58,514 nucleotides of DNA, from NCBI GenBank assembly GCA_964537405.1, contig CAZIBS010000001.1, positions 2,035 to 60,548 of the forward strand. Reading direction: 5' to 3'. This document shows positions 6,613-29,125 of this stretch, piece by piece. The notes under the pieces were generated by a model. That model was not told where the DNA came from. It was given only the letters and a program-made list of their open reading frames with translations, and ran no database searches. The position numbers were made by a program, and so were the translations under genes. This DNA is from an uncultured Thermoanaerobaculia bacterium. Lineage in GTDB: Bacteria; Acidobacteriota; UBA4820; DSQY01. How positions within the stretch are numbered: the stretch's first letter is position 1; every line of letters starts with the position of its first letter.

Positions 6613-6641
6613 TTGTCGGCGTTGGCCGTGCGTGGTATCAT
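6613..6641 (+). promoter_or_regulatory. Putative sigma-70 promoter for the uppS operon
   Basis: TTGTCG-17 nt-TATCAT with a TG extended -10, about 20 nt before the uppS ORF. Confidence 0.45.
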
Positions 6642-6662
6642 AGAAACTTCTGAGAGACTGCC

Positions 6663-12781: not shown

Positions 12782-14113
12782 CTATCGTATGTCGTACTTC
12801 TTCATGCGGTAGAGCAGGACGTGGCGTGGAATCTTGAGGGCGCGAGCGGCGGCTGACTTGTTCCGGCCTTTTGCCTCCAGCGCATCCAGAATCGCCTTGC
12901 GCTCTATCTCCCACAAGCCGACCGGGCTACTCCCGCTCGCCGTACCACTTTTGCGAAATTCGGCCGGTAGAAGGTCCGTTGTTATCGTCCCGTCGGGATG
13001 AAGTACGGCCATCCGTTGGCAGAGGTTCTGCAATTCCCTCACGTTGCCGGGCCACCGGTAGTTCCTCATGCGCTCCTCCGCATCCGCGGTGAGTTCCGGT
13101 TCACCGCCTCCGAAGCGCCGGTAGAAGTGGGCGAAGAGCAGAGAGACGTCTTCGGGTCGCTCCCTCAAGGGAGGCATCTCTATGGGAATCACGTTCAGGC
13201 GCCAGAAGAGATCCTCTCTGAACGCACCCCCCCGAACGGCCTCACTCAGGTCTCGGTTCGTTGCGGCAACCACTCTTACGTCGACGGGACGCGAGGCGGT
13301 TGCGCCCACCGGATCTACGATCCTCTCCTGGAGCACCCGCAGTATCTTGGCCTGGAGTGAAGGCGCCATGTCTCCCACTTCGTCCAGGAAAATGGTTCCC
13401 CCGCCGGCCTGTTCGAACTTGCCCCTGTGGGAGCGGTGCGCGCCGGTGAAGGCGCCCCTTTCGTGGCCGAAGAGTTCGGTTTCCAACAGGTCCTTGGGAA
13501 CCGCCGCGCAATTCACCGCCACGAAGGGACCCCTGGCCCTGTGCGAGAGGGCGTGCAACGCGCGGGCGGCCAACTCTTTTCCCGTCCCGCTCTCGCCGGT
13601 GATCAACACGGTGGCTTCGCTGGGCGCAACGTGTTTTATGGCTACCATTGTCTCTCGGATGGCCCGGCTCGACCCCAGGAGGGAATCCTGGGGGCGCTTC
13701 TCCTCCAGCCGCTTCTTCAAACGCCTGTTCTCCAGGGCCAGGTTGTGAAGGTGAATAGCCTTCTTCACCGCCAGCAGCAGCGTCTCCCGCTTCACCGGCT
13801 TGGTCAGGTAATCCGAGGCGCCCAGGCGCATCGCCTCTACGGCGTCGCCTATGGAGCCGTAGGCGGTCATAACCACCACCGGCACCTGGAGCCCCTGCTC
13901 CATCACGGCCTTGAGGAGTTCCATGCCGTCCATCACCGGCATCCGGATGTCGGTGAGAATGAGGACGAAGGAACCGGAGACCAATGCCTTCAGGGCCGTT
14001 TTACCATCCGGTGCCGAGTCCACGCCGTAACCCTCTTTTTCAAGGTGGTAGGTTACGACACGGCGGAGGTTCCGGTCGTCCTCCACGAGGAGTATGCGAG
14101 CCGGTCGTTTCAT
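12782..14113 (-). CDS. Sigma-54-dependent response regulator (NtrC/ZraR-like)
   Basis: ILLVEDD, LILTDIRMP, GESGTGKE, intact GAFTGA, FLDEVGD, HTH. ATG at 14113 overlaps the kinase stop (ATGA). Confidence 0.92.
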   Translation of the reverse strand: MKRPARILLVEDDRNLRRVVTYHLEKEGYGVDSAPDGKTALKALVSGSFVLILTDIRMPVMDGMELLKAVMEQGLQVPVVVMTAYGSIGDAVEAMRLGASDYLTKPVKRETLLLAVKKAIHLHNLALENRRLKKRLEEKRPQDSLLGSSRAIRETMVAIKHVAPSEATVLITGESGTGKELAARALHALSHRARGPFVAVNCAAVPKDLLETELFGHERGAFTGAHRSHRGKFEQAGGGTIFLDEVGDMAPSLQAKILRVLQERIVDPVGATASRPVDVRVVAATNRDLSEAVRGGAFREDLFWRLNVIPIEMPPLRERPEDVSLLFAHFYRRFGGGEPELTADAEERMRNYRWPGNVRELQNLCQRMAVLHPDGTITTDLLPAEFRKSGTASGSSPVGLWEIERKAILDALEAKGRNKSAAARALKIPRHVLLYRMKKYDIR

Positions 14114-15189
14114 AGGGAACTCCCCTTTGCGTCCGCCCCGTTTCCCTGGACGGAGATATCCCCTTCGGGCGACCCCGGAAGCCACAAGGTGAAGCGGGAA
14201 CCTCCAGTGGGAAGCGATTCACCCCTAACCCAACCCCCGTGCGCTTCCGCCACCTGTTCAACCAGAGCCAGACCCAAACCGGTTCCATCCTTCCGCCGCG
14301 TGAAGAAGGGTTCGAAGAGTTTCTCCTCCTCGCCCTTCGGCAAACCGGGACCATGGTCCGTCACACCGATGAGGCATCCACCATCCGATCCACGTAGTTC
14401 CACCTCTACGCCGCCACCCTTCGGAGACGCTTGCACGGCGTTGCGCACCAGGTTCGTAAGTGCCTGATGGAGCCTGGCCAAATCCGCATAGAGGAGAGGA
14501 CATTCCTTCACCCCTGCGAGCACCAGTTCAACCCCCCTCTTGTGCGCAAATGGCTCAAGCGAGCGGAAACACTGAGCCACCACGTCGGTCGGGGAGAGAG
14601 GGGCGCATTCCACGGCGATGGGACGACCCAGGTCGAGAAAATCCCGCACTACTCCCTTCAATCGTTCGATCTCGTTGATGAGGATCTCGAAGAAGGGACG
14701 CCGCTTGTGGCCGGGAGGATAATCCTCCGCGAGAATCTCGGCCGCGCCCTGGATCGATCCGAGGGGAGTTCGCACCTCGTGGGCGATTCCCGCGGCCATC
14801 CTGCCGAGCGCCGCCAGTCTTTCGCTCTGCCTGAGCCTTTCCCGGAGCGCTTCCCCCTTTCTGTGCTCCGCGTCCTTTCTGTCCACCAGTATTCCCGCCA
14901 TGGCTCCTATTCCCAGGTAAAAGATGATCTCTATCATGTCCTTGTCCCCCCAAAACGGCCCGGTGTACAGCAACGCCAGGGGCAGGGTCGCCAGGGAAAT
15001 TACGCCCGATACGATAAGTCCTCCCCTGAGTCCGAACCAGAGAGCGCCGAGAATAATGGGGACGTAACATATGCGCCGATGGATCAAGTCCACCCAGGGT
15101 GGGTATGGCAGGAACATGTAGTGCAGGGACAGCGTGAAGGTCACTACTACCGTAAGAAATAGAAATCGCCACGAGTCTCTGCCCCGCAT
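14110..15189 (-). CDS. Membrane sensor histidine kinase (about 4 TM helices, no large periplasmic domain)
   Basis: ERLAALGRMAAGIAHEVRTPL, NLVRNA, DHGPG, GTGLGL; hydrophobic N-terminal ~100 aa. Confidence 0.92.
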   Translation of the reverse strand: MRGRDSWRFLFLTVVVTFTLSLHYMFLPYPPWVDLIHRRICYVPIILGALWFGLRGGLIVSGVISLATLPLALLYTGPFWGDKDMIEIIFYLGIGAMAGILVDRKDAEHRKGEALRERLRQSERLAALGRMAAGIAHEVRTPLGSIQGAAEILAEDYPPGHKRRPFFEILINEIERLKGVVRDFLDLGRPIAVECAPLSPTDVVAQCFRSLEPFAHKRGVELVLAGVKECPLLYADLARLHQALTNLVRNAVQASPKGGGVEVELRGSDGGCLIGVTDHGPGLPKGEEEKLFEPFFTRRKDGTGLGLALVEQVAEAHGGWVRGESLPTGGSRFTLWLPGSPEGDISVQGNGADAKGSSL

Positions 15190-15314: not shown

Positions 15315-15351
15315 GAGCAAAATGAAGAATATTGCACAACTCATTGTACAC
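15315..15351. promoter_or_regulatory. Candidate upstream activator site for the sigma-54 regulator
   Basis: Imperfect inverted repeat GAGCAAAATGA...TCATTGTACAC about 100-130 bp upstream of the -24 element. Confidence 0.3.
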
Positions 15352-15445
15352 TATCCTCCACTATTTCTCCAGCAGCAGAAAAAGAGGAGACCCTCCCGAA
15401 GCGAAGGCGGTTCCTTATTGCTTGCCAGAGCACCCTCTCGCGACA

Positions 15446-15462
15446 TTGGCACCCCTTATGCA
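15446..15462 (+). promoter_or_regulatory. Sigma-54 (-24/-12) promoter for the cusC-like operon
   Basis: TTGGCACCCCTTATGCA: GG at 15448-49 and GC at 15460-61 give the exact GG-N10-GC spacing; divergent from a sigma-54 activator gene. Confidence 0.75.
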
Positions 15463-15514
15463 ACGCCCCTCCCTCTATGCGCCACGGCGCACCATGGAGG
15501 ACCATCGGAGGACA

Positions 15515-16903
15515 ATGATGAAGAAACCATTTTCCACGTTGCTCGGCTTCTCTCTCGTCGTGATCGGTTTTTGCTGCAGCCTGGCCGTGCTTGGTCAAGA
15601 GCCGGTCTCACCGCTGCCGCCCATAGAGATACTCGTGCGGCGCGCGATGAAGCACAACCCGGGCTTGGAGGCCCAAAGGCGCAAAATCCTCGCGGCGCTG
15701 GAAGTGCCATCCCAGGCCGGAGCGTTACCCGACCCCGCCGCCGACCTCCAGTTCATGATGCTGCCCATGGATGGGGGCCTCAACGCCGACGATGCGCTCA
15801 CGAAAGGCGTATCTCTCGGAATCACCCAGCGTCTGCCCTACCCCGGAAAGCTGAAGCTGAGAAAACGGAAAGCCGAACGCCGGATCGACGTGGCCAGGAC
15901 CCAACTGAAGGCCATGGAAAGCAACCTGCGGGGCGAGGTAACCGGCGTTTCCTACCACTACGCTCTCTACCGGCGCCTTCTGGAGATCAACCGGAAAACG
16001 CAGGATGCCCTGGAAGCGGCGGCCAAGGGCGCGGCGGGTGTTTATGCCTCGGGCAATGGCAGCCAGACCGATGTGCTTCTCGCTCAGGCCGCGTTTACAA
16101 AAAACAAGGCCGACAGGAAAACCTTGAACAGGCAGCTTGAGGTTGCTCGCGCCCGCCTTGATGATCTGCTTGGCGGTCCTACCGATCCCGCCCTGCTCGA
16201 TCGGATCGCCATTCCCGAACCGGGCGACCCGCCAAGGCTGAACAGCCTTGTTAAAGACCTTCAGGATACCGCGCCCATGGTCCTGAAGGCGCAAGCCGAG
16301 GTGGCCGTCAGGGCGGAACAGGTCGCCATCGCGAAGAAGGATTTCAAGCCCGACTTCCTAGTGGGTGGACGGTACCGTCATAAGGATATGACCATGGGCG
16401 GTCGCGACTACCTCACGGCCATGGTCGGCATCACCCTTCCCTTCTTCCATCGGAAGAGCCGTTACCAGCCCGCGCTCCGTGAGGCCACGTACATGAGAGA
16501 GAGCGCCAGGGAGCAGGCCGGCGATGTTCTCAACGAGGCGCGGTACATGGTGACGGACGCCTACCAGACCGGCGTCCAGGACCGGGACGTCTACGCGCTC
16601 TACAAAAACGGTTTGTTGATCCAGGCAAAAAAAGCCTACGAGTCTTCGTTGGCTTCCTACACCGTCGGCGAAGTCGACTTTACGACCATGCTGAGGGCGC
16701 TCACCAATTATTACGCTTACGAATCCAGGGCCTTCATGGCCCGGGCGGACTACCAGGTATCCCTGGCCCGGATTGAAGCGGTACTCGGCCATACTTTCCG
16801 GATGAAGAAGAAGAGCGATCCGAGTGTAAGATCGATCAAGGATTTCCCGAAACCAGTGCCCCACACGGTACAGAAGCACCCTTTCCCAAAGGAGGAAAAA
16901 TGA
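15515..16903 (+). CDS. TolC-family outer membrane efflux protein (CusC-like)
   Basis: Signal peptide MMKKPFSTLLGFSLVV..., AGALPDP, ITQRLPYPGKLKLR, helical OMF repeats; GGAGG RBS before ATG 15515; first gene of the RND operon. Confidence 0.85.
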   Translation: MMKKPFSTLLGFSLVVIGFCCSLAVLGQEPVSPLPPIEILVRRAMKHNPGLEAQRRKILAALEVPSQAGALPDPAADLQFMMLPMDGGLNADDALTKGVSLGITQRLPYPGKLKLRKRKAERRIDVARTQLKAMESNLRGEVTGVSYHYALYRRLLEINRKTQDALEAAAKGAAGVYASGNGSQTDVLLAQAAFTKNKADRKTLNRQLEVARARLDDLLGGPTDPALLDRIAIPEPGDPPRLNSLVKDLQDTAPMVLKAQAEVAVRAEQVAIAKKDFKPDFLVGGRYRHKDMTMGGRDYLTAMVGITLPFFHRKSRYQPALREATYMRESAREQAGDVLNEARYMVTDAYQTGVQDRDVYALYKNGLLIQAKKAYESSLASYTVGEVDFTTMLRALTNYYAYESRAFMARADYQVSLARIEAVLGHTFRMKKKSDPSVRSIKDFPKPVPHTVQKHPFPKEEK

Positions 16904-17250
16904 CCATAACCGTTACCTGTCCCATGCACCCGGACGTAATAGCCGACAAGCCCGGTAAGTGCCCGAAATGCGGAATGTTTCTGGAGGCCAAAGCCATGAA
17001 AAAGACCTGCTACACCTGTTCCATGCACTCAGACGTGAAGTTGGATAAACCGGGCAATTGCCCAAAGTGCGGTATGCCCCTTGAAAAGAGCACCGAAGAG
17101 GTCGCCTTTCTCTACTCGTGCCCTATGCACCAGGACGTAATAGCCAACAAGCCCGGTAAGTGCCCGAAATGCGGAATGTTCCTGGAGGCGCATCCTACCG
17201 GCGCACCGCACCCGAAGGCCCATGACCACCCGATGGGTCATTGCTGCTGA
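16900..17250 (+). CDS. Small protein with three heavy-metal-binding (HMBD) repeats and a His/Cys-rich tail
   Basis: Three copies of C[PS]MHxDV..KPG.CPKCGM.LE; ends HPKAHDHPMGHCC; AAGGAGG RBS; no signal peptide. Confidence 0.85.
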   Translation: MTITVTCPMHPDVIADKPGKCPKCGMFLEAKAMKKTCYTCSMHSDVKLDKPGNCPKCGMPLEKSTEEVAFLYSCPMHQDVIANKPGKCPKCGMFLEAHPTGAPHPKAHDHPMGHCC

Positions 17251-17280
17251 TTACTACTTCGAGGGTTGGTGAAGAAGCAT

Positions 17281-17308
17281 GGGGGACGTCCGAAACGAGA
17301 CGTCCCCC
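17281..17308. repeat. Perfect 10-bp inverted repeat (stem-loop) between the HMBD gene and cusB
   Basis: GGGGGACGTC-CGAAACGA-GACGTCCCCC. Confidence 0.8.
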
Positions 17309-17333
17309 GACCCTTAACGAAGGAGGCACCCCT

Positions 17334-18770
17334 GTGAAGAGACTTCTTCTGATAGTGATTCCCGTCGTCCTGCTGGCATTCATACTCGGTCGGTTCACGG
17401 TGAAAAGATCGAATCCGGACGGCTCATCCCGTTCGGGCAAGGTCGCCGCCGCGGGAAACAATGCCCCTGAAAAGAAGGGGCGTAAGATCCTCTACTGGCG
17501 CGCGCCCATGAATCCGACCTACATCTCGAAGAAACCCGGCAAGTCACCCATGGGCATGGACCTGGTGCCCGTTTACGCGGAAGCGGTTTCCCCGAAACCC
17601 CGTCCCGCGCGGAAAGGCCAACGCAAAGTTCTTTACTGGCGGGCGCCCATGAATCCCTCCTACATTTCGAAGAAACCCGGCAAATCCCCCATGGGGATGG
17701 ACCTCGTTCCCGTTTACGCCGACCAGATATCTTCCGGTGATATCAAGATCAGCCCGACGGTCGTGCAGAACATCGGCGTTACGACCACCGAGGTAATAAA
17801 GAAACCCTTCTTCAGGACGATCAGAACCTATGGCACGGTCACCTGGAACGAGACCACCCTCGCGGCTATGAACACCAAGATCGGGGGCTGGATCGAAAAA
17901 CTGAACGTGAACGAGACGGGACAGATCGTGCGCAAAGGCCAACCCCTCATCTCGATCTATTCGCCCAAGCTCGTAGCGACGCAGGAGGAGTTCCTCGCAG
18001 CCATGGATGCGGCCCGGGCCCTCCAGAAGAGTTCGGACCCTACCGTGGCTGAGGGCGGTTCCCAGCTACTTGAGTCCGCAAGGCGGCGCTTGAAGCTGTG
18101 GGACATCAACAATGCCCAGATCAGGGAACTGGAACAAACGCGGAAGGTGCGTAAGACAATGATCCTTTATGCACCCATAAGCGGAATCGTTACGCACAGG
18201 GCCGTGGTCGTGGGTGATCACGTCCAGCCCGGCATGAATCTGGTCCGGATCGCGGCGCTCAATCCCATCTGGGTCATGGGGTCCATCTACGAACAGGACA
18301 TCCCGCTCGTCAAAAAGGGCATGAAGGCGGCGGTAACCTTTGACAACCTACCGGGGGAGACCTTTGAAGGCACCGTAGATTATGTCTACCCGTACGTGGA
18401 AGGCAAGTCGCGCACGGCGCAGGTCCGGATCAAGCTGCCCAACAAGAAAGGCGAAATTCTTCCCCGGATGTATGCCACCGTGCAACTTCGCGTGCCGGTG
18501 GCACCCGATGCCGTTGTGATTCCCAATAACGCTGTCATCCAAGCTTCTTCAACGGACAACGTGGTCTTTATCGCCGAAGGAAACGGCCGTTTCAGGGGCC
18601 GAAAGGTAGTCCTGGGCCCGGAGGGCGACAACAACATGGTGATGGTCAAGGCAGGACTCGAACCCGGTGAGCGCGTGGTCACCTCCGCCCAATTCATGCT
18701 GGACTCGGAGAGTCAGCTCAACGCCGCCATCCAAGAGATGCTGTCGCAAAAGAAAGCCGGGGATTCCTGA
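17334..18770 (+). CDS. cusB: CusB-like RND periplasmic adaptor with a duplicated metal-binding motif
   Basis: Two YWRAPMNP.YISKKPGKSPMGMDLVPVYA repeats; GWIEKL, YSPKLVATQEE, FMLDSES. GTG start after AAGGAGG. Confidence 0.88.
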   Translation: MKRLLLIVIPVVLLAFILGRFTVKRSNPDGSSRSGKVAAAGNNAPEKKGRKILYWRAPMNPTYISKKPGKSPMGMDLVPVYAEAVSPKPRPARKGQRKVLYWRAPMNPSYISKKPGKSPMGMDLVPVYADQISSGDIKISPTVVQNIGVTTTEVIKKPFFRTIRTYGTVTWNETTLAAMNTKIGGWIEKLNVNETGQIVRKGQPLISIYSPKLVATQEEFLAAMDAARALQKSSDPTVAEGGSQLLESARRRLKLWDINNAQIRELEQTRKVRKTMILYAPISGIVTHRAVVVGDHVQPGMNLVRIAALNPIWVMGSIYEQDIPLVKKGMKAAVTFDNLPGETFEGTVDYVYPYVEGKSRTAQVRIKLPNKKGEILPRMYATVQLRVPVAPDAVVIPNNAVIQASSTDNVVFIAEGNGRFRGRKVVLGPEGDNNMVMVKAGLEPGERVVTSAQFMLDSESQLNAAIQEMLSQKKAGDS

Positions 18771-21700
18771 TGCTTTCGCGCCTCATAGACTGGTCGCTTA
18801 AGAATCGCTACATGGTCCTTCTCCTCACGGCATTTTTCATCATCGCGGGCATCTGGGTGATCTACCACACGCCCGTGGACGCGATCCCCGACCTCTCGGA
18901 CACGGAGGTCATCATCTATACCAAGTACCCGGGTCAGAGTCCCCAGGTTGTCGAGGACCAGGTCACTTACCCGCTCACCACCGCCATGCTTTCCGTACCC
19001 AAGGCCACGGTTGTGCGGGGCTACTCCTTCTTTAACTTCTCGCTCGTTTACGTAATCTTCAAGGACGGGACCAACCTTTACTGGGCGCGTACGAGGGTTC
19101 TCGAATACCTCAACTACGTGACGCCGCAGTTGCCCAGGGGGATTGCGCCCCAACTCGGACCCGACGCCACCGGTGTGGGGTGGATCTACGAGTATGCGCT
19201 GGTGGACAAGACGGGGAAACACAACCTCTACCAGTTGCGATCGCTGCAGGACTGGTACCTTAGGTACCAGCTCCAGACCGTACCCGGCGTATCCGAGGTG
19301 GCGAGCATCGGCGGATACGTCAAGCAGTACCAGGTGGAACTCGATCCGAATAAGCTCGCCGATTACCACATCAGCCTCGAGCACGTGAAACACGCGATCA
19401 TGCAATCCAACAACGACGTGGGTGGCCGCGTCGTGGAGATGGCCGAAACCGAGTACATGGTACGAGGAATTGGATACATTAAAAGCCTTGATGATCTCAG
19501 GAAGATTCCAATCGGCCTGGACCCGGGCGGACGCCCCGTCCTTCTCAGCCAGGTGGCGAACATCCACCTAGGCCCCGAGCTGAGGCGCGGCCTGGCCGAT
19601 TTGAACGGGCAGGGCGGCGTGGCCGGAGGCATCATTGTCATGCGGGTCGGCGAAAACGCGCTCAAGACAATCGAAGCCGTGAAGGCCAAACTCGCGGCAC
19701 TCAAGAAGGGCCTGCCCAAGGGCGTCGAGATCGTCCCGGTTTACGACCGCTCCGGGCTCATCGAACGGAGCATCAAGTTTCTCAAGGATAAGCTCGTCGA
19801 GGAAATCATCGTCATTTCCCTCGTCTGCATCCTCTTTCTTTTCCACTTCCGCAGCGCGCTCGTGGCCATCATCATGTTGCCACTCGGGGTCATGGCGTCG
19901 CTGATCATCATGTATTTCCAGGGGCTCAACAGCAACATCATGAGTCTCGGGGGTATCGCCATCGCCATGGGCGCCATGGTTGACTCCGCCATCATCATGA
20001 TCGAGAACGCCCACAAAAAAATGGAGTACGGCTACGACAAGAAATACCACTGGGAGATCATCGGCGTTGCCGCCAAGGAGGTGGGTCCGACCCTCTTCTG
20101 GTCCCTGCTCGTGCTGACGTGCTCTCTCCTTCCCATCTTTACGCTGAACCAGCAGTCCGGCAGGCTCTTCAAACCGCTCGCCTTCACGATGACCTATACC
20201 ATCGGCTCCGCCGCCTTCCTGGCCGTCGTGCTGGCGCCCATACTTATGGGCTTTTTCATCCGTGGCCGGATCCGCCCCGACGTGGAAAATCCGATCACGC
20301 GATTTCTTATCTGGATATACCACCCTGTCGTGGACTGGGTTCTCAAGCATAGAAAACTCGTTCTTTTCATGGCAGTGTTGGTCATGGCCAGCGCCGTTTT
20401 TCCGTTCAAGCAGTTGGGTTCTGAGTTCATGCCTCCGCTGAACGAAGGAGACCTCGTCTACATGCCTACGACGCTGCCGGGAATTTCAATCGGAAAGGCC
20501 AAGCAGATACTCGAACAGACCGACCGCATCATCAAGACCTTCCCCGAGGTCAAGTCCGTCTTCGGCAAGGTGGGAAGGGCCAATACGGCCACCGATCCCG
20601 CGCCCCTCACGATGACCGAAACCACCATTCAGCTCCGGCAGGACAAGAGCTACTGGCGCAAGATCCACGTGGAAAGGTGGTACTCCTCCTGGGCACCGGA
20701 TTGGCTGAAGAAGCCGCTGCACCTGTTGTGGCCCGAAGAGCGGACGATCACCCAGAAGGAACTCATCAACAAGCTCAACCATGCTATCCATTTCCCGGGA
20801 CTCGTCAACGCATGGACCATGCCCATCAAAACCCGAATCGACATGCTGTCCACCGGTATTAAAACACCGGTCGGCATTAAGCTGCTCGGTCCGGACCTCA
20901 ATGAATTGGCCAAGCTCGCCAAGGAAGTGGAAGCCGCCGTCCGCAACATTCCCGGCACACGCTCGGTCATCGCGGAGCGGGTCATGGGCGGCTACTACAT
21001 GGACTACGACATCGACCGCACGGCCGCCGCCCGCTACGGGCTCTCGGTTCAGGCAATCGAGGACGTTATCGAATCGGCGCTCGGCGGGATGAACGTTACC
21101 CAGACCGTGGAAGGTCTCGAGCGCTACCCGGTCAACCTGCGCTACATGCGCGGCTACCGGGATAACGTGCAGGCGTTGAAGCGCGTGCTCATCCAGACGC
21201 CCACCGGCGCACAGATCCCGATCTCCGAAGTGACTAAATTCGTTATCCACCAAGGCCCGCCGGCTATAAAAACCGAAAACTCCAGGAAAACGGCCTGGCT
21301 CTACGTGGACCTGAATACGTCCGACATCGGCGGCTACGTGGCGCGAGCGCAGAAGATCGTGAACGCCAAGGTGAAACTCCCGGAACAATACAACATCGTC
21401 TGGAGCGGCCAGTATCGATATATGGAGGAAGCCCGCTCGCGGTTGGCCATCGCTATCCCGGTTACGCTCGTGATCATCCTGTTGCTGCTCTACTTCAACA
21501 CCAAGTCTTTCACCAAGGTAGCCATCGTCATCCTGTCCGTACCCTTCTCGCTTGTCGGTTCATTCTGGCTGCTCTACCTGCTGCATTACAACCTGTCCGT
21601 TGCCGTTTGGGTCGGGGTTATCGCCTTGGCCGGGCTCGACGCGGAGACCGGCGTAGTTATGCTGCTCTACCTCGAACTGGCCCACGCACTCTACAGCAAG

Positions 21701-22003
21701 CTGGGACGCATGAAAACCATCGGAGACCTCAGGCAGGCTATTTTTCACGGCGCGGTGACACGCATTAGGCCGAAGATGATGACCACGGGCGCCATCCTGG
21801 CGGGCTTGATACCCATTATGCACGGAACCGGGACCGGCTCCTCCGTCCTGAAGCGCATTGCGGCGCCCATGGTTGGCGGCGTCATTACGTCCCTGCTGCT
21901 AAATCTGGCGATCTATCCGGTGCTATATTACTACTTGAAGCGCCGACACCTGGATCCGTCGATGGAACCCACGTCCAACGAGGAAGTTCACGAAAGCAAT
22001 TAG
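18770..22003 (+). CDS. cusA: Cu(I)/Ag(I) RND efflux permease (CusA/SilA)
   Basis: DAIPDLSD, LGPDATGVGWIYEY; the three Met-containing motifs of the CusA Cu site are present (EGDLVYMP, PLTMTET, RIDMLSTG). Confidence 0.95.
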   Translation: MLSRLIDWSLKNRYMVLLLTAFFIIAGIWVIYHTPVDAIPDLSDTEVIIYTKYPGQSPQVVEDQVTYPLTTAMLSVPKATVVRGYSFFNFSLVYVIFKDGTNLYWARTRVLEYLNYVTPQLPRGIAPQLGPDATGVGWIYEYALVDKTGKHNLYQLRSLQDWYLRYQLQTVPGVSEVASIGGYVKQYQVELDPNKLADYHISLEHVKHAIMQSNNDVGGRVVEMAETEYMVRGIGYIKSLDDLRKIPIGLDPGGRPVLLSQVANIHLGPELRRGLADLNGQGGVAGGIIVMRVGENALKTIEAVKAKLAALKKGLPKGVEIVPVYDRSGLIERSIKFLKDKLVEEIIVISLVCILFLFHFRSALVAIIMLPLGVMASLIIMYFQGLNSNIMSLGGIAIAMGAMVDSAIIMIENAHKKMEYGYDKKYHWEIIGVAAKEVGPTLFWSLLVLTCSLLPIFTLNQQSGRLFKPLAFTMTYTIGSAAFLAVVLAPILMGFFIRGRIRPDVENPITRFLIWIYHPVVDWVLKHRKLVLFMAVLVMASAVFPFKQLGSEFMPPLNEGDLVYMPTTLPGISIGKAKQILEQTDRIIKTFPEVKSVFGKVGRANTATDPAPLTMTETTIQLRQDKSYWRKIHVERWYSSWAPDWLKKPLHLLWPEERTITQKELINKLNHAIHFPGLVNAWTMPIKTRIDMLSTGIKTPVGIKLLGPDLNELAKLAKEVEAAVRNIPGTRSVIAERVMGGYYMDYDIDRTAAARYGLSVQAIEDVIESALGGMNVTQTVEGLERYPVNLRYMRGYRDNVQALKRVLIQTPTGAQIPISEVTKFVIHQGPPAIKTENSRKTAWLYVDLNTSDIGGYVARAQKIVNAKVKLPEQYNIVWSGQYRYMEEARSRLAIAIPVTLVIILLLLYFNTKSFTKVAIVILSVPFSLVGSFWLLYLLHYNLSVAVWVGVIALAGLDAETGVVMLLYLELAHALYSKLGRMKTIGDLRQAIFHGAVTRIRPKMMTTGAILAGLIPIMHGTGTGSSVLKRIAAPMVGGVITSLLLNLAIYPVLYYYLKRRHLDPSMEPTSNEEVHESN

Positions 22004-22014
22004 TTGCCCGCCTC

Positions 22015-22057
22015 GGTTTCCCGGGGGCCGGAGTTCACTCCACGTCCCCGGGAAACC
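22015..22057. terminator. Long stem-loop immediately after cusA
   Basis: GGTTTCCCGGGG...CCCCGGGAAACC enclosing GGAG-TTCA-CTCC; no clear U-tract. Confidence 0.45.
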
Positions 22058-22099
22058 TTAAAGACGTGGTAACATGAAACCTTAAAGACGTGGTAACAT
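22052..22099. repeat. Exact tandem duplication of a 24-bp unit
   Basis: GAAACCTTAAAGACGTGGTAACAT twice (22052-22075, 22076-22099), just upstream of the P-II RBS. Confidence 0.9.
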
Positions 22100-22120
22100 G
22101 AGACCGAAAGGAGTGATACA

Positions 22121-22426
22121 ATGAAAAAGATCACCGCGATCATCCGCACGGACTGCCTGGAACCGGTTGAACGTGCCTTGCGGACTCTTGGAGTCGAAGG
22201 CATCAGCGTCAGCCGGGTCAATGGCTACGGCGAACACGCTCACTTTGCCAACAATGACTGGTTATGCACCCACGCCCGCATTGAGACCTGCACGGAGGAA
22301 GCCTTCACACAGGACATCGTAGATACCATCATGGATGCCGCTCATACGGGGAGGGCCGGCGACGGCATCGTGGCCGTTCTTCCGGTTGAGCGATTCTTCA
22401 AAGTGCGTGAGCAGCGTGACGGCTAA
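22121..22426 (+). CDS. P-II family protein, metal-efflux-associated type, copy 1
   Basis: MKKITAIIR, GYG, HTGRAGDG; short T-loop lacking the uridylylated Tyr. Confidence 0.88.
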   Translation: MKKITAIIRTDCLEPVERALRTLGVEGISVSRVNGYGEHAHFANNDWLCTHARIETCTEEAFTQDIVDTIMDAAHTGRAGDGIVAVLPVERFFKVREQRDG

Positions 22427-22439
22427 AAGCGCAAGGTTA

Positions 22440-22517
22440 TTCGATTACCCTTGCCCGATGCACCCGGAGATTCAACAGGGTTACCCCGCGTCGATCGGGC
22501 CGGGAGGCGCAGCATGA
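22440..22517 (+). pseudogene. Relic half of an HMBD motif
   Basis: Reads FDYPCPMHPEIQQGYP... with no second CxxC; its stop overlaps the next ATG (ATGA). Confidence 0.5.
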
Positions 22518-23662
22518 GCCCGCGCGATGAGCTTCACATCGTCGGCGCCGGACCGGCCGGGCTCGCCGCGTCCATTACCGCGGCACGGGCCGGAGTCGCC
22601 GTCGTCGTCCACGAGAAGGGACACGACGTAGGACGCAGGTTCCACGGAGATTTCCAGGGGCTGGAGAACTGGACATCCTCCATGGACATCATCACCGAGA
22701 TCAAGTCTATGGGGATCGAGCCCAACTTCGACCACATCCCTCATTACAATCTGGTCTGCTTCGATCCTTCGGGGCGCAAACTGGCCGCGGGTTCTTCCCG
22801 GCCGTTGTACTACCTCGTTCGACGCGGTACCGAGCCGGGAACTCTCGACCGGGGGCTCCTTCAACAAGCGCTTGATCTCGGTGTCGAGGTCCGATTCAAG
22901 GACCGTGTCGATGGTATCCCCGGAGGGGGAATCGTGGCAACGGGACCGCGCGCCGTGGATATCATCGCAGTGGGCTACCTTTTTGAGACCAACGCTGAAA
23001 ACGGCTCCTACGTGGCTATCGACCGCAATCTGGCTCCGGGAGGGTATGCTTACCTGCTCATCCATGAGGGGCGGGGTACCGTTGCCACTTGCATGTTCGG
23101 GGACTTCCACCAGGAAGCGGTATACTTGGAACGAACCATCTCTTTCTTCACCTCGTCTCTTGATCTGCGACTCCACAACCCGCGCCGTTTCAGCGGCTAC
23201 GGCAACTGTGAGATTCCTCAAACCGCGGTTCAAGGCAAGATGACCCAGGTTGGAGAAGCCGCCGGTTTCCAGGATATGTTGTGGGGTTTTGGGCTCCGGT
23301 ACGCTCTCACTTCCGGTCATATGGCAGCCCAAGCGGTTCTCACCGGTTCGCAAGCAACCTACGACAAGCTGTGGCGACTTCGGTTCGCGGGCCAGATGCG
23401 GGCCGCCACAGTCAACCGCTTCCTCTTTAGGTTGGCGGGACATCAAAGCCTATCGTGGTTCCTTGGCCGGGTCGCAGCCAAGGGGGATCCACGTGTGAGC
23501 TTGCATCGACTCTACGCTTCTTCGGCGTGGAAGACGGCATTGTACCCGGTGGTTGGCAGGTACGTAAAAAGCCGTCGCCGCCACCACGAATGCCTCGAGC
23601 CCGGCTGCAATTGCACGTGGTGCCGGTGTCAGCACCACAGTGAGTTCATGGAGGAGGTGTGA
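22514..23662 (+). CDS. NAD(P)/FAD-dependent oxidoreductase (geranylgeranyl-reductase-like) with a Cys/His-rich C-terminus
   Basis: IVGAGPAG, APGGYAY, VGEAAGFQD; tail HHECLEPGCNCTWCRCQHH; GGGAGG RBS before ATG 22514. Confidence 0.8.
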   Translation: MSPRDELHIVGAGPAGLAASITAARAGVAVVVHEKGHDVGRRFHGDFQGLENWTSSMDIITEIKSMGIEPNFDHIPHYNLVCFDPSGRKLAAGSSRPLYYLVRRGTEPGTLDRGLLQQALDLGVEVRFKDRVDGIPGGGIVATGPRAVDIIAVGYLFETNAENGSYVAIDRNLAPGGYAYLLIHEGRGTVATCMFGDFHQEAVYLERTISFFTSSLDLRLHNPRRFSGYGNCEIPQTAVQGKMTQVGEAAGFQDMLWGFGLRYALTSGHMAAQAVLTGSQATYDKLWRLRFAGQMRAATVNRFLFRLAGHQSLSWFLGRVAAKGDPRVSLHRLYASSAWKTALYPVVGRYVKSRRRHHECLEPGCNCTWCRCQHHSEFMEEV

Positions 23663-23666
23663 AGCC

Positions 23667-23888
23667 GTGAGCATCCTCTTGGATAATTGGCTCTTTCTTC
23701 TCATCATTGCTCTCTGCATCGGGATGCACTTCTTCCACGGCCATGGTCATGGGGACGGAAACGGCACAATGAACGGTGCGGGGGATGAAATCCGGTCGCG
23801 GAGGCAACCTTACACCAACCGTCGGACGGGCCGGAGAAGCCGAACTCGGTTCCGAGCCGAATGGTCAAGAAGGCGCCAGGGGCTGTGA
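23667..23888 (+). CDS. DUF2933-like small His-rich membrane protein
   Basis: WLFLLIIALCIGMHFFHGHGHG; GTG start after GGAGGAGG; the C-terminus may be degenerate. Confidence 0.6.
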   Translation: MSILLDNWLFLLIIALCIGMHFFHGHGHGDGNGTMNGAGDEIRSRRQPYTNRRTGRRSRTRFRAEWSRRRQGL

Positions 23889-23919
23889 GGGGCTCCGGCG
23901 GGCTTTGCCCGTGCGTCTT

Positions 23920-23988
23920 GGCGCCATTTTGTCCGGCTTGGAACCGGTAGGCGCCGGTTCCTCCATCCTGAAGCACATTGCGGCGCCA
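23920..23988 (+). pseudogene. Degenerate copy of a 3' segment of cusA
   Basis: GAILSGL...GSSILKHIAAP versus CusA GAILAGL...GSSVLKRIAAP; the DNA aligns by eye to about 21788-21867. Confidence 0.7.
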
Positions 23989-24058
23989 CGTATGATATAA
24001 TTCATAGTGAACCCGGTGGATCGGCGTCAGCCGCCACCCATTGAAAAGGAGGTAAATC

Positions 24059-24739
24059 ATGAAGAGAAGCAAGGCCTGTTACATCGCCGGAGTGCTGACT
24101 CTGGGGCTTTTACTGGGAAGCACCGCCGTATTTTCCAGCTCGGCCGTAAACACGTCACGGAAAACCACCGTACGTAAGATGACGCATCGGGAAGGGGCTC
24201 AAAATCTGCAACAGAAAAAGGCGCCGCGAGGGTGCGAGGCAATGATGGGGAAGTGCAAGCTGATGAACTCCCGCATCGACGAATTGGCGGCCAAGATGAA
24301 GGCGGCCACCGGACTGAAAAAGATAGATGCAATGGCGGACCTTCTGGATGAACTCGTCGCGCAGCGCAAGTCGATGCACAAGATGATGATGAACATGCGT
24401 GGCGGCATGTCCGGCGGTTCGATGCGGAAGTCCAAGATGATGGGCGGTATGTCCGGCGCTTCGATGCGGAAGTGTAAGCTGATGAACTCCCGCATCGACG
24501 AATTGGCGGCCAAGATGAAGGCGGCCACCGGTCGGGAAAAGATAGATGCAATGGCGGACCTTCTGGGTGAACTCGTCGCGCAGCGCAAGTCGATGCACAA
24601 GACGATGATGAATATGCGTGGCGGCATGTCCGGCGGTTCGATGCGGAAGTGTAAGATGATGAAAAAAATGATGATGCGGAAGAAAATGCAACAGCGGGAG
24701 GCTGCACCGGCGGCCGGGAAGAAGACGTCCGTAAAGTGA
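24059..24739 (+). CDS. Exported Met-rich helical repeat protein
   Basis: Signal-like N-terminus; 33 Met in 226 aa by hand count; internal duplication with a 219-nt offset; AAGGAGG RBS. Confidence 0.75.
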   Translation: MKRSKACYIAGVLTLGLLLGSTAVFSSSAVNTSRKTTVRKMTHREGAQNLQQKKAPRGCEAMMGKCKLMNSRIDELAAKMKAATGLKKIDAMADLLDELVAQRKSMHKMMMNMRGGMSGGSMRKSKMMGGMSGASMRKCKLMNSRIDELAAKMKAATGREKIDAMADLLGELVAQRKSMHKTMMNMRGGMSGGSMRKCKMMKKMMMRKKMQQREAAPAAGKKTSVK

Positions 24740-24889
24740 AGCGCCGGTTCCATGCCAATGCCGGCTGGGCGAAACACAGGTTTTTCCAACCGGCCGGTTC
24801 GGGGCATAAGCGATGATGAGTTGTGGTTCCGAAATGGGTTGGATGTGGATATGGCCGGTGGCGGAGGGCCTTCAGCCTGGCTCGTCACG

Positions 24890-25048
24890 GACCCCGTTTG
24901 CGGGATGAAGATCGACCCGACCCTCGCAGGCGCCAAAGTCGAGTGCATTTGCGCCGTGTGTCTGGAGATTGTCCGTGACGAGCCGGGGAACCGTCCCATC
25001 TGCGGCATGGCTTTGGAACCCCGTACCATTTCGATTGAGGAGGAGTGA
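24890..25048 (+). pseudogene. Internally deleted, degenerate copy of the copA 5' region
   Basis: [10 protein letters not shown] joined to [39 protein letters not shown]; matches copA at about 25456-25485 and 25787-25906. Confidence 0.75.
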
Positions 25049-25053
25049 ATAAA

Positions 25054-25359
25054 ATGAAAAAGATCACCGCGATCATTCGCACGGACTGTCTGGAACCGGC
25101 TGAACGCGCCTTGCGGACTCTTGGGGTTGAAGGCATAACGGTAACCAGGGTTAAGGGATTCGGTGAACACGCAAATTTTTTCAGCAGTGACTGGTGCTGT
25201 ACCCACGCCCGCATCGAAATCTACACGGAGGACTCTCTTGTACAGGACATCGTAGACACTATCATGGATGCCGCTCATACGGGGAGGACCGGCGACGGCA
25301 TCGTGACCGTTCTTCCGGTTGAGAGATTTTTTAAAGTGCGTGAGAAGCGTGAGGGTTAA
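25054..25359 (+). CDS. P-II family protein, metal-efflux-associated type, copy 2
   Basis: Same length (306 nt) as copy 1 and highly similar; loop reads GFGEHANFFSSDWCCTH. Confidence 0.88.
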   Translation: MKKITAIIRTDCLEPAERALRTLGVEGITVTRVKGFGEHANFFSSDWCCTHARIEIYTEDSLVQDIVDTIMDAAHTGRTGDGIVTVLPVERFFKVREKREG

Positions 25360-25428
25360 AAGCGCAAGAACTTTCGATTAAGGCTGACCCTTGCCGTTCG
25401 GAGTTCTGAAACGCTACGGAGGTTCAAA

Positions 25429-27909
25429 GTGAGCACAAATTCAATGCGCGGGATAGACCCCGTTTGCGGGATGAAGATCGACCCTGACGCCACCGAATAC
25501 AAGCTCGAACACGGCGGAGCCGTGGTTCACTTCTGTTCGACACACTGCCTCGAGAAGTTCCGGGCGGACCCCGGGAAGTACGCGGTGGAGAGTTCCACGG
25601 CCGAAAGTTCCGGAGCCGAAGCGGTGAAGCCGGAGGACGACGATAAAAAGAATGCGAGTTGCCTGGTCTGCGAGGTGCCGCCGCTGGTGGAGTACACCTG
25701 CCCGATGCACCCCGACATACGTTCCGACAAGCCAGGCGCCTGCCCCAAGTGCGGCATGGCACTGGAACCGGTCGCCGCGGCTCCCGGAGGCACCAAGGTG
25801 GAGTACACCTGTCCCATGCACCCGGAGATCGTCCGTGACGAGCCGGGGAGCTGTCCCATCTGCGGCATGGCTTTGGAGCCTCGCACCATTTCGGTTGAAG
25901 AGGAGAATCCCGAACTCAAGGATATGCGTCGCAGGTTCTGGGTGAGCCTGGCCCTGTCGGTGCCGGTGTTCCTGATCACCATGGCTGATCTGGTACCGGG
26001 TTTGAGGGGTGTCAACTGGCTTACGGCGCATGCGCGGATCCTCATTCAGCTCGGGCTCGCCACCCCTGTTGTCCTCTGGGGAGGCTGGCCGTTCTTCGTC
26101 CGTGGCTGGCAATCCATCGTCAACCGTTCGCTCAACATGTTCACGTTAGTCGGCCTTGGAACGGGTGTGGCCTATATCTACAGCCTGATCGCCGCCCTCT
26201 TCCCGGGGATCTTTCCGCCGTCCTTCCGTGGCGCGGAGGGTACCGTGGCCGTCTACTTTGAAGCCGCGGCGGTGATCGTGACCCTTGTCCTGCTAGGCCA
26301 GGTTCTCGAACTCAAGGCCAGGAGCCGGACCGGCGCGGCCATCAAGGCTCTTTTGGGCCTGGCTCCCAAAACGGCCCGCAGGATCGAGGAGGACGGCACC
26401 GAGGCGGACGTTCCGCTCGACCAGGTCCAGGTAGGCGATCGGCTTCGGGTGCGTCCCGGCGAGAAAATACCGGCGGACGGTATCGTTCTCGAAGGCATGA
26501 GTTCGGTGGACGAGGCTATGATTACGGGCGAACCCCTGGCGGTCACGAAGAAGTCCGGTGACCACGTCATCGGAGCCACCATTAACCGTACGGGCTCCAT
26601 GGTAATCAGCGCCGAAAAGGTGGGTGCGGACAGCCTCTTGTCCCGGATTGTCCAGATGGTGGCCGAGGCCCAGCGAAGCAGGGCGCCGATCCAAAAACTG
26701 GCGGATTCGGTGGCCGGGTACTTCGTGCCGGCCGTGATTGGCGCCGGCGTCATCACCTTCATCATCTGGGGGTTGTGGGGCCCGGACCCGCGGATGGCCC
26801 ACGCCCTGATCAACGCCGTTGCCGTTCTGATCATCGCGTGCCCCTGCGCCTTGGGTCTGGCGACTCCCATGTCCATCATGGTGGCCACGGGCAAGGGCGC
26901 AACCGCCGGGGTTCTGTTCAAGAACGCCGAGGCGATCGAGGTGATGCGCAAGGTGGATACCCTGGTAGTGGACAAGACGGGCACCCTCACCGAGGGAGCC
27001 CCACAACTCCAAACCGTGCTTTCCCAGGGCAAGCTTGCCGAGAACGATTTCCTGGCCCTGGTGGCCGGGCTTGAGCGCGGGAGCGAGCACCCCCTCGCCG
27101 AAGCCATCGTGAAGGGTGCAACGGACCGGGGTGTCGTGTTGGAGAAGGCCTCCGATTTCGACTCTATCACCGGCAAGGGTGTCACGGGCACCGTGGCAGG
27201 CCGTGCCGTCGCCGTGGGGAACCGGGCCTTGCTGGAGCAGATCGGTGCTGATGCAAAACCCCTGGCGGGGACCGCGGAGCAATTGCGGCGCGAAGGTCAG
27301 ACCGTGATGTTTGTGGCCGTAGACGGAGAGGTGGCCGGTCTCGTCAGCGTGGCCGATCCCGTCAAGGAAAGTTCGCCGGAAGCCATAGAAGCCTTACACA
27401 AGGAGGGCCTGAGAGTTGTGATGCTTACCGGCGACAGCAAAACAACCGCCGAGGCGGTGGCGCGGAAGCTCGGAATAGACGAGGTTATCGCCGAGGTCCT
27501 GCCCGATCAGAAGGCCGAAGTTGTCAAACGTCTGCAGGGCGAGGAGCGGATCGTGGCCATGGCCGGAGACGGGATCAACGACGCCCCTGCCCTGGCCCAG
27601 GCTCAAGTGGGTATCGCCATGGGCACCGGTACCGACGTTGCCATGGAAAGCGCCGGGGTGACCCTCGTCAAGGGAGACCTCCGCGGGATTATTCGCGCTC
27701 GCCGCCTGTCGCGGGCCACCATGCGCAACATCAAGGAGAATCTCTTCTGGGCTTTCGCCTACAACAGTATTGGCATCCCCATCGCGGCCGGCGTTTTGTA
27801 TCCCTTCTTCGGCCTGCTGCTGTCGCCGATCATCGCCGCCGCCGCAATGAGTTTCAGCTCCGTTTCGGTTGTTGGTAACGCCCTACGGTTGAGAAGAGTC
27901 CATATCTGA
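25429..27909 (+). CDS. copA: Cu(I)-translocating P1B-type ATPase with YHS and two HMBD domains
   Basis: DPVCGM...FCS..C (YHS), YTCPMHP twice, [22 protein letters not shown]...MSFSS. Confidence 0.95.
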
Positions 27910-28020
27910 ACAGGGATATCCCGGTTGCAGGCCGGCCTCGTATTCAGCGACAACGGGGTGGTACGGGTCATCCCGGTAAAAATAACGCCGGGTCCGGGAA
28001 TCTTATTAAGGAGCGGCGTC

Positions 28021-28698
28021 ATGGGTCAACGACAAAAGAAAAAAGGGTCGGCCCACTCTTCCGCAGACAACGACAGTGTCGACCGCAACGAATGGGGACG
28101 GCTCACGGGATGGCTCGTGGTGCTCGCTGTTGTTATAGTGGCCGTCGGAACGATGGTCCTGATCGTTCGGAGCCGTCCATCGAAAGTTATCAACAAGCCT
28201 CGGGTGGCGGTCCGGAACGATGTTTTAGCGGCCGAAACGACCGATCCGAGGATGGAAGAGGTGGAACGAACGCTCTTCTGCCCTTGTGGGAACTGCAACC
28301 TCAAGCTGAGCAAGTGCACGTGCGACAACGCCAACGGTGCGCTTGAGGTGAAGAAAACCATCGTTGCCCTGCTCGAGAGCGGCCTCGATGTAAAGGCCGT
28401 GGCGGCAACGTTGTCCAGCCGGTTTCCCGGTTCGTTGCGGAATACGAAAACGACCCCGGAGGTTGTTGAGCAGCCGATGGAGACCGCTTCCGGGGACTCG
28501 TTCGCCGCCGTCGTGGCTAAGCTCCACTGTTTGTGCGGCAACTGCCGGAAGCTCCTGGCAGAGTGCGAATGCGCTCACCGGAACGGGGCCATCGAGGTTA
28601 AGACGTTCATCAAGAAGCGACTGGCGGAGGGTTTCAGCGGTTCCGACGTGCTGTCGGCGGTGAAGCGAGTGTACGGGAGCCGTTTGTTTCATCCGTAA
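28021..28698 (+). CDS. Membrane-anchored protein with two Cys-rich CcmH/NrfF-like domains
   Basis: One TM helix, then LFCPCGNC.....KCTC and LHCLCGNC.....ECEC, each followed by helices ending L.[SE]G...[RV][FY].G; AAGGAG RBS before ATG 28021. Confidence 0.6.
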   Translation: MGQRQKKKGSAHSSADNDSVDRNEWGRLTGWLVVLAVVIVAVGTMVLIVRSRPSKVINKPRVAVRNDVLAAETTDPRMEEVERTLFCPCGNCNLKLSKCTCDNANGALEVKKTIVALLESGLDVKAVAATLSSRFPGSLRNTKTTPEVVEQPMETASGDSFAAVVAKLHCLCGNCRKLLAECECAHRNGAIEVKTFIKKRLAEGFSGSDVLSAVKRVYGSRLFHP

Positions 28699-28723: not shown

Positions 28724-29125
28724 ATGGATGTCAAGTACGCAATTGTCAGGGAGTTACATGACCTGGGATACGCCGAGGCTGTGGAACGAACCGTCGAGCT
28801 TCTCAAGAACGAAGGCTTCGGGGTCTTGACCGAGATCGACGTCAAGGCCACGCTGAAGTCCAAGCTCAACCTGGACTTCAAACGCTACGTAATTCTCGGC
28901 GCCTGCAACCCAACCTTCGCCCACCGGGCTCTGGCCGAAGAGCCGCTCATCGGTGTTTTCCTGCCGTGCAACGTTATCGTGATGGAACGCGACGGTGGAG
29001 GAAGCGTCGTAGCCGCCTTCAAGCCAACGGTCGGTTTCGCGCTGGTGAATAACCCCAATGTTGCTCCCATCGCCGAGGAAGTCGAGGAGCATCTCAAGAG
29101 GGCGCTGGACGGGCTGGGGGGGTAA
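28724..29125 (+). CDS. DUF302 domain protein
   Basis: GFGVLTEIDVKATLKSKL, YVILGACNP, IGVFLPCNVIV. Confidence 0.88.
   Translation: MDVKYAIVRELHDLGYAEAVERTVELLKNEGFGVLTEIDVKATLKSKLNLDFKRYVILGACNPTFAHRALAEEPLIGVFLPCNVIVMERDGGGSVVAAFKPTVGFALVNNPNVAPIAEEVEEHLKRALDGLGG

Follow-up and report, generated by a model that had tools for sequence, protein, structure and literature searches.

What is the role of two P-II proteins in a copper-export locus? Few families of signalling proteins are as widespread as P-II across bacteria, archaea and plants, and two genes of this family lie in a stretch of 58,514 nucleotides from an uncultured Thermoanaerobaculia bacterium of the Acidobacteriota (GenBank assembly GCA_964537405.1, contig CAZIBS010000001.1), hereafter the window. 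Both encode 101 residues on the + strand: copy 1 (22121..22426) starts 118 nt after cusA, which ends at 22003, and copy 2 (25054..25359) ends 70 nt before copA, which starts at 25429. A preliminary description of this DNA had proposed that their effector ligands are replaced by His and Cys, and that they may sense metal and dock on CusA. We lean, with moderate confidence, towards a more general model of an accessory adaptor which would respond to an effector other than 2-oxoglutarate (2-OG) and work by touching a membrane protein; its ligand, its partner and its effect on regulation are putative.

The family assignment is clear. Copies 1 and 2 match PF00543 over profile positions 1-101 of 102 with 62.8 and 65.4 bits (E 4e-17 and 7e-18) against a cut-off of 25, so that membership is far beyond chance, and the open reading frames (ORFs) with these scores agree with the two paralogs first described, one after cusA and one before copA. 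The copy 2 ORF opens at 25045 or 25054, and the ATG at 25054 gives a 101-residue product colinear with copy 1. An AlphaFold2 model based on 120 relatives (predicted local distance difference test score 91.5 overall, about 71 in the shortened loop) displays the ferredoxin-like beta-alpha-beta-beta-alpha-beta succession (E2-9, H10-23, E29-33, E51-58, H60-74, E82-88). Its top Foldseek matches are all GlnB, GlnK or GlnZ (template modelling score 0.82-0.87, 26-37% identity), 2XUL and 3MHY are both among the structure matches, and the ESM Atlas search returned P-II clusters only, below 0.9. Since the best PDB sequence match is a canonical GlnK (E 5e-13), there is no solved structure in this P-II subgroup. 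The residues of the nucleotide scaffold are kept as Gly27-x-Ser/Thr29, Gly35, Gly37, Gly-Asp-Gly and Lys/Arg94-x-Arg96. Together, model and alignments indicate that both copies retain the P-II fold and the adenine-nucleotide scaffold.

The effector site itself is remodelled. Residues were mapped by HMMER alignments to the solved GlnK/P-II chains 7p52, 2j9c and 3lf0. Glu38 of the window proteins occupies the place of canonical Arg38 (M. tuberculosis row), His39 that of Gln39, Trp47 that of Tyr51, His51 that of Lys58 and Ile83 that of Lys90, with Lys94 and Arg96 at Arg101 and Arg103. In canonical P-II, Arg38, Gln39, Lys58 and Lys90 are ligands of Mg-ATP and 2-OG (2XUL and 3MHY structures). The T-loop is 7 residues shorter, in two gaps of 4 and 3; with a Trp at the Tyr51 position and this shorter loop, both copies lack the modifiable Tyr51 (or Ser49) by which a GlnB/GlnK T-loop is recognized. 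The copies contain the strings GEH, THARIE and GDGI, and WLCTH or WCCTH. The features first read by eye thus reappear in the alignment with solved chains: a loop about seven residues shorter and devoid of Tyr51, His at both the Gln39 and Lys58 positions, GDGI for GDGK, and Cys beside His. Scores against the GlnB/GlnK equivalog families fall far below their cut-offs (46.8 and 58.7 bits versus 202 for NF008111, 42.6 and 53.5 versus 181 for NF007946). As judged from these alignments, all the canonical side chains for Mg-ATP/2-OG binding and T-loop modification have been lost.

Could they nevertheless be the ordinary nitrogen P-II of this organism, placed in the locus by chance? A search of the 97.7%-complete genome (Pfam; phmmer and hmmsearch on six-frame ORFs, E ≤ 10) turned up no other PF00543 match, and its only amtB is on another contig (G000:C13:20299-21495, - strand) with no P-II gene, hence no glnK, found beside it. 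Besides the low equivalog scores and the replacement of every ligand residue and of Tyr51, this idea faces the neighbourhood: the P-II genes adjoin cusA and copA, with no linkage to glnA or amtB. According to a passage of PMC11617674, canonical GlnB/GlnK genes are linked to glnA/nadE or amtB, and NifI genes to nif genes. No nif genes were found among the window ORFs scanned against Pfam. Moreover, genomes of the same genus lack these P-II genes altogether. We regard a nitrogen role as extremely improbable. Among 20 relative genomes, 14 have a weak P-II-like match only (27-37 bits), 3 have one at 76-83 bits and 3 have none.

Conservation among relatives tells which of these changes define the subgroup. 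A word-indexed search yielded 249 relatives at E ≤ 1e-5, of which the best 120, both window copies included, were aligned. Glu38 (117 of these 120), Asp46 (114), Trp47 (114), Arg53 (118), Glu55 (117) and Ile83 (117) are nearly always present, as are His51 (110, Tyr in 9 others) and His75 (107). Position 39 is Tyr in 107 and His in 10, position 49 Val in 63 and Cys in 32. A profile search of a 50%-clustered library extended this picture, with 6416 matches at E ≤ 1e-3, 1464 at E ≤ 1e-10 and 41 at E ≤ 1e-30. Among its best 150 representatives, many of which are fragments, 125 have the 13-residue loop, 116 Glu38, 102 Tyr39, 18 His39, 89 His51, 66 Trp47 and 60 His75; position 83 is hydrophobic, and Lys lies outside its five commonest residues in every rank bin. 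Among the 58 relatives that have CusA or CopA encoded in their vicinity, the set for which the preliminary description had worded its refuting check, Trp47 and Glu38 are invariant (58/58 each), followed by Ile83 (55/58), His75 (51/58) and His51 (50/58). The His at the Lys58 position is thus a hallmark of the group. Hence, of the His and Cys residues initially expected to be conserved in pump-linked homologs, His51 is so, whereas His39 (7/58, Tyr being usual) and Cys49 (9/58) are not. The latter are traits of a small clade formed by the window copies and three loci, L001-L003, Acidobacteriota genomes included.

These counts bear directly on the proposal that a His/Cys site in the cleft senses Cu(I) or Zn and that the trimer docks on the CusA trimer as GlnK does on AmtB. 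The conserved His51 and His75, together with Glu38 and Asp46, align with positions which line the ATP/2-OG cleft in solved P-II proteins (2XUL/3MHY literature), and the window clade adds His39 and Cys49, the latter two residues from His51 on the same strand. CusA is a trimer, and no gene is found upstream more often than cusA (39 of 80 loci, see below), which suits trimer-on-trimer docking. However, His39 is found in only 10 of the 120 aligned relatives and Cys49 in 32, and the family has no conserved Cys or Met. Furthermore, the loop which plugs AmtB is precisely the one shortened here, arguing against a deep plug of the GlnK-in-AmtB style; links of P-II to monomeric-type CopA or a DUF2231 protein are as frequent as those to CusA; and CusA orthologues of the same genus are found without P-II. 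Direct metal sensing with docking on CusA seems to us rather unlikely.

The retained scaffold suits another proposal, in which the proteins bind ADP, ATP or AMP and not 2-OG, and tune costly efflux to the adenylate charge. The scaffold is near-invariant in the same best 120 of 249 relatives (G27 120, S/T29 119, G35 120, G37 119, GDG 120, R96 116, and R, H or K at position 94), and passages of PMC9974498 and 10.1101/2021.02.14.431189 provide a precedent in the P-II-like SbtB, which regulates a transporter via adenine nucleotides. Yet of the five basic residues that bind phosphate only two are left, one of the lost three having become Glu, a change which would weaken the binding of a triphosphate if no cation acts as a bridge, and the specific tie to Cu(I) pumps is left unexplained. 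A pure energy-status sensor is, in our opinion, decidedly unlikely.

The tie to Cu(I) pumps itself comes from the genomic context of the relatives. With one genome taken per species, 229 stretches encode relatives, and the best 80 were analysed, a set of closest relatives rather than one drawn at random. Neighbours were counted within 6 kb when at least 40% (CusA) or 45% (CopA) identical over at least 100 residues. A CusA-like gene is present in 43 loci, a CopA-like gene in 31 and either of them in 58, or in 60 of the 80 when two loci are added (L037 and L045) whose 74-residue CopA ends just upstream were missed by the length threshold. These 58-60 loci bear out the suggested membership in a known, poorly characterised pump-linked P-II subgroup. 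CusA lies upstream on the same strand in 39 of the 80 loci, within 250 nt in 19 of them, and a scan of metagenomes added 33 loci, 23 with CusA or CopA. In one locus, L107, two tandem P-II copies (5977-6315 and about 6500-6850) follow cusA and precede a small protein of heavy-metal-binding (HMBD) type.

The linked pumps are of one kind. The window CusA (18770..22003, +), which scores 1173 bits with E. coli CusA and 482 with ZneA, has Met at 565, 615 and 692, the positions of the three-Met site, presumably M573/M623/M672 in E. coli CusA numbering. The three Met are kept in all 36 CusA-like neighbours covering the sites, and not in the four second resistance-nodulation-division (RND) pumps (31-36% identity). 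The motifs CPC, YN and M..SS, signatures of Cu(I) ATPases, are likewise invariant in 18 of 18 aligned CopAs, namely that of the window (25429..27909) and 17 full-length ones chosen among the loci with CopA. Judged by these motifs, the pumps linked to this P-II subgroup are of Cu(I) type.

Such neighbours would also fit a cytoplasmic metal buffer or chaperone without signalling role, as proposed for CutA or CopZ. The genes are co-located with copA and HMBD-rich proteins, and a gammaproteobacterial clade combines His (Gln in L063) for Arg at position 94 with a C-terminal C-x(3-5)-C tail (L009, L016, L022, L034, L037, L040, L045, L046, L055, L057, L059, L061, L063, L065, L067, L071, L074, L078, L079). 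This His94/Cys-tail type makes up 11 of the 14 P-II genes located just downstream of copA. However, the tail is absent from the window copies and from most relatives (61/80), the core has no CxxC or Met motif, and on the tree the Cys-tail type amounts in essence to a single clade (22 rows), hence to one origin. We hold a mere buffer to be very unlikely. The correlation between this subtype and an upstream copA was also considered as a case of subtype-partner co-evolution, which was rejected: being essentially a single clade, it represents one event.

Two further features suggest work at the membrane. Among the best 150 representatives, 13 (P0132, P0135, P0136, P0138, P0141, P0152, P0155, P0156, P0162, P0165, P0183, P0193 and P0206) are longer: a linker of low complexity leads from the P-II domain to a pair of predicted transmembrane helices, the turn of which always carries H-x-x-H, and a basic tail closes the chain. 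Every one of the 13 tethered forms has Glu38, His51, GDG and Arg96, and one such form is a single ORF on DNA (L084, 679-1239). For the fused anchor, neither a Pfam match nor a free-standing homolog was found, the latter by hmmsearch in the genome of the window and the 80 loci (best E 3.1). In 20 of 113 loci, on the other hand, a DUF2231 membrane protein is encoded 31-149 nt after the P-II gene; it displays five invariant His and a His-rich tail (e.g. L095:6325-6954, L021:6339-6929, L011:1113-1724). In L095 a multicopper oxidase comes after the DUF2231 gene; this locus had been a candidate tethered form from its tblastn span, and was rejected as such, as it has a P-II gene and a separate DUF2231 gene. 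The fused anchor is unrelated to DUF2231 (hhalign probability 0.5%), and we infer that tethering and DUF2231 pairing are independent signs of the subgroup working at the membrane. The window has neither.

How did the window come to hold two copies? They share 80% protein identity (81/101) and 84% over 300 nt, and in a tree of 82 sequences they are sisters (support 100/87), which indicates a lineage-specific duplication. They adjoin the single P-II genes of L001-L003, with support of only 95/36 for the fork; these loci read outer-membrane efflux protein (OEP)-CusB-CusA-P-II-CopA, L001 and L003 being Acidobacteriota records and L002 unclassified. Copy 2 is 67-73% identical to these single genes and copy 1 60-64%. 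Unique changes, all between residues 29 and 63, number 11 in copy 1 and 4 in copy 2, and the branch of copy 1 is about three times longer (0.23 versus 0.07), so that copy 1 appears as the faster-evolving and copy 2 as the more conservative one. The ratio of nonsynonymous to synonymous substitution rates between them (dN/dS 0.23, dS 0.47) indicates that both are under purifying selection.

Traces of the event persist between the copies. An HMBD-start relic (..YPCPMHPEI..; 22443..22471, +) is 83% identical to both copA HMBD starts (family D7), a cusA 3'-end relic (23954..23987, +) is 91% identical to 21834-21867 (family D9), and an ORF made of copA 5' pieces, a YHS start fused with the last part of the second HMBD (24752..25048, +; Pfam HMBD 30 bits), finishes just before copy 2. 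In the latter, 29 nt are 100% identical to 25456-25484 (D10) and 134 nt 80% identical to 25772-25905 (D5). These relics between the copies indicate that a cusA-P-II-copA module was both duplicated and rearranged in the past; they point to a segmental duplication of the module followed by insertions, an order of events that is itself inferred.

The explanation that we favour can be worded as follows. In Cu(I)/Ag(I) export the window P-II proteins would play an accessory part, as cytoplasmic signal carriers or adaptors that act on the inner side of the membrane. A trimer, assumed from the family, would read a non-2-OG effector in the remodelled cleft between subunits, lined by Glu38, Tyr/His39, Asp46, Trp47, His51 and His75; candidates are a nucleotide by itself, a metal ion or a complex of the two. 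The signal could be passed by contact with a membrane protein, CusA or CopA here, DUF2231 or the protein's own fused anchor in other lineages. A complex prediction from alignments, with CopA residues 155-826 and three copies of copy 2, gave interface scores (ipSAE) of 0.00 and 0.00 and is counted for neither side.

In a bolder version, the subgroup would transduce metal status for the export of Cu(I)/Ag(I) from a position close to the membrane. In tethered forms, a ring of H-x-x-H motifs at the outer end of a six-helix bundle would sense periplasmic metal and move the P-II domain; free forms would dock on CusA, CopA or DUF2231; and the window clade would have its own Cu(I) site of His39, Cys49 and His51, with the diverging copies each specialised for one pump. 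Taken as a whole this version is tentative and rather improbable; if true, it would describe the first P-II with a metal effector and an efflux-pump target.

Several observations weigh against the adaptor model, the genomes of closest kin first. Three same-genus genomes (L117, L118 and L119) encode OEP-CusB-CusA at 88-90% identity, then CopA within about 125-165 nt, and tblastn (E ≤ 1e-3) found no P-II gene at their cusA-copA. Their CopA (928-935 residues, three YHS and two HMBD) is only 59-63% identical to that of the window. Since these cusA-copA loci lack it, the region that follows cusA varies and P-II is an accessory gene, and since an 88-90% identical CusA operates without P-II, the latter is not an obligatory pump subunit. 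The window arrangement could therefore be a recent and dispensable acquisition. Among the relatives, 22 of the 80 loci have no CusA or CopA within 6 kb, 9 of these 22 with full 6-kb flanks. Of 127 candidate ORFs in such pump-less loci, 71 were scanned; two loci that nearly duplicate others (L051 and L054), the ORFs of P-II itself and short ones were set aside. Some neighbours are metal-related (MerR with DUF411 and DUF2231; a cupredoxin; DUF302 with another P-type ATPase; another RND pump), others bear no relation to metals (B12-radical SAM, SMC, CobQ). For the effector, no Cys or Met is conserved across the 120 aligned relatives. Cys and Met are the usual cytoplasmic ligands of Cu(I). The retained GDG and Arg96 would fit plain nucleotide sensing equally well. 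Finally, the assignment to the published pump-linked group compared below is made by description, and a second pump-linked type of P-II exists; we found no biochemical or genetic study of the pump-linked group in the literature, and no binding data in the papers found.

The remainder of the locus is that of a copper exporter. The module lies on the + strand, in the order OEP, HMBD protein, CusB, CusA, P-II copy 1, then P-II copy 2 and CopA, with housekeeping genes on both sides. It begins with a CusC-like OEP (15332..16903; Pfam OEP, 132 bits), followed by a small protein of three HMBD repeats (16900..17250; Pfam HMBD in 3 stretches, 125 bits) and a membrane fusion protein of CusB type whose N-terminus bears two HMBD repeats (17241..18770; HlyD_D23 258 bits, HMBD x2), then CusA. 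Divergent from this operon, on the - strand, are a sigma-54-dependent response regulator (12782-14185; Sigma54_activat, Response_reg, HTH_8) and a histidine kinase (14110-15189; HisKA, HATPase_c), a possible regulator of the module whose membership in it is uncertain.

Much of the cusA/copy 1 spacer is occupied by a 24-nt tandem repeat of 2.2 copies (22052..22105; Tandem Repeats Finder score 101, 96% matches). After copy 1 comes an FAD-dependent, geranylgeranyl-reductase-like oxidoreductase with a Cys/His-rich C-terminus (22451..23662, +). Among its Rossmann/FAD matches in Pfam and NCBIfam only NAD_binding_8 and FAD_binding_2 reach family cut-offs, and its true start is probably the ATG near 22514. 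Homologs (42-48%) occur within a few kb of P-II relatives in L029, L056, L062, L097 and L103. Next are a small DUF2933 membrane protein with a His-Gly-rich stretch (23640..23888, +; 25.8 bits, cut-off 21) and a Met-rich repeat protein (24059..24739, +), presumably secreted, with two 219-nt repeats about 95% alike and a signal-peptide-like N-terminus read from the translation. The latter contains Met runs such as MMNMRGGMSGGSM, a composition that would fit a periplasmic Cu(I)-binding protein. Beyond copy 2, the CopA is a P1B-type Cu(I) ATPase on the + strand with one YHS and two HMBD (Pfam E1-E2_ATPase, Hydrolase, HMBD x2, YHS). Next comes a protein in which a Cys-rich repeat occurs twice (27925..28698, +; CPCGNC...C.C and CLCGNC...C.C), with one predicted membrane helix and a CcmH match of 19 bits, under the cut-off, and then a DUF302 protein (28724..29125, +; 84 bits), homologs of which are near P-II relatives in L001, L016, L026, L043 and L049.

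A scan of 21800-25600 gave no convincing terminator in the cusA/copy 1 or copy 2/copA gaps, and weak promoter-like matches. An origin by a mobile element was considered and set aside, as no transposase or integrase was seen among the scanned window ORFs (29 of the 45 listed outside the module) and the flanks consist of housekeeping genes. Assembly across both copies is supported by public DNA contigs (three runs of one study, which may include the source sample), since they span both without differences: 21808-23071 bridges the cusA 3' end, copy 1 and the next gene, and 24463-25766 the repeat protein, copy 2 and the copA 5' end. The stretch 21000-26500 occurs in hydrothermal vent metagenome DNA runs of two studies, near-identical in one and as a 95-99% variant in the other, the variant strain of the second study differing just upstream of 22076. 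No RNA run is listed among the public runs with this stretch.

How do these proteins compare with known systems? The closest is the 'PII-New Group' (PII-NG; Sant'Anna et al. 2009, J Mol Evol). Its genes show linkage with those of heavy-metal efflux pumps according to a passage of PMC11617674, and its effector binding properties are given as 'currently not known' in a passage of PMC4316997. In Geobacter, its member GSU2134 adjoins the RND gene GSU2135 and is co-induced with it by Co(II), as a passage of PMC7726332 states. The window proteins fit the operational definition of PII-NG worded in citing papers, a placement by description and not by a tree of the founding sequences: they are PF00543 members outside GlnB/GlnK and NifI, with genes beside metal efflux pumps. 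Of 41 Geobacteraceae genomes, 5 contain the present subgroup, one of them as P-II-copA-OEP-membrane fusion protein-RND, which is compatible with PII-NG identity without proving it. Unlike PII-NG as described, the relatives here also come from Acidobacteriota, Nitrospinota, Verrucomicrobiota, Myxococcota and Thermodesulfobacteriota, and the linked pumps are specifically the Cu(I)-type CusA and CopA. By the operational definition, the window proteins are new PII-NG members from a lineage outside the phyla quoted, with a clade-specific His39/Cys49 pair. The pump-linked proteins represent the one classical P-II group without reported ligand or target in the papers found, and the locus and its relatives narrow the partners to Cu(I)/Ag(I) exporters, not metal pumps in general. 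With the 2-OG site gone, the His/Glu/Trp-lined cleft strictly conserved, some members membrane-anchored and the gene accessory even among members of one genus, a first biochemical study has definite residues, constructs and candidate partners to start from.

The second pump-linked P-II mentioned above, which we call type B, is found in a genome of the same family (L120, G009:C40, about 2283-2591, - strand), directly downstream of a CzcA-like RND pump gene. It shares with copy 1 a position directly after an RND pump gene, but has Lys58 and GDGK retained at their positions. Its identity to the window copies is only 29-32%, and the pump beside it reaches no more than 34% with the window CusA. Because this type retains Lys58 and GDGK, the name PII-NG may cover more than one clade. 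Canonical GlnB and GlnK (7P52, 2XUL, 3LF0, 2NS1) have the same fold, Gly-rich nucleotide scaffold and C-terminal basic pair, and differ in their Arg38, Gln39, Tyr51, Lys58 and Lys90, all replaced here, in their longer T-loop and in equivalog scores. CutA1 also has a trimeric P-II-like fold linked to copper, yet a passage of PMC12685090 gives CutA no sequence homology with P-II, and the role of CutA in metal tolerance is itself under dispute (Selim 2021, in the reference list of that paper); the window proteins match PF00543 only.

As a functional analogy we favour SbtB, a small P-II-fold protein co-encoded with a membrane transporter, the bicarbonate transporter SbtA, that is under its regulation. 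The SbtB/'valve plug' preprint has no mention of pumps or of the pump-linked P-II group. SbtB differs from the window proteins in belonging to another sequence family, in sensing adenine nucleotides and cAMP, and in its C-terminal redox loop.

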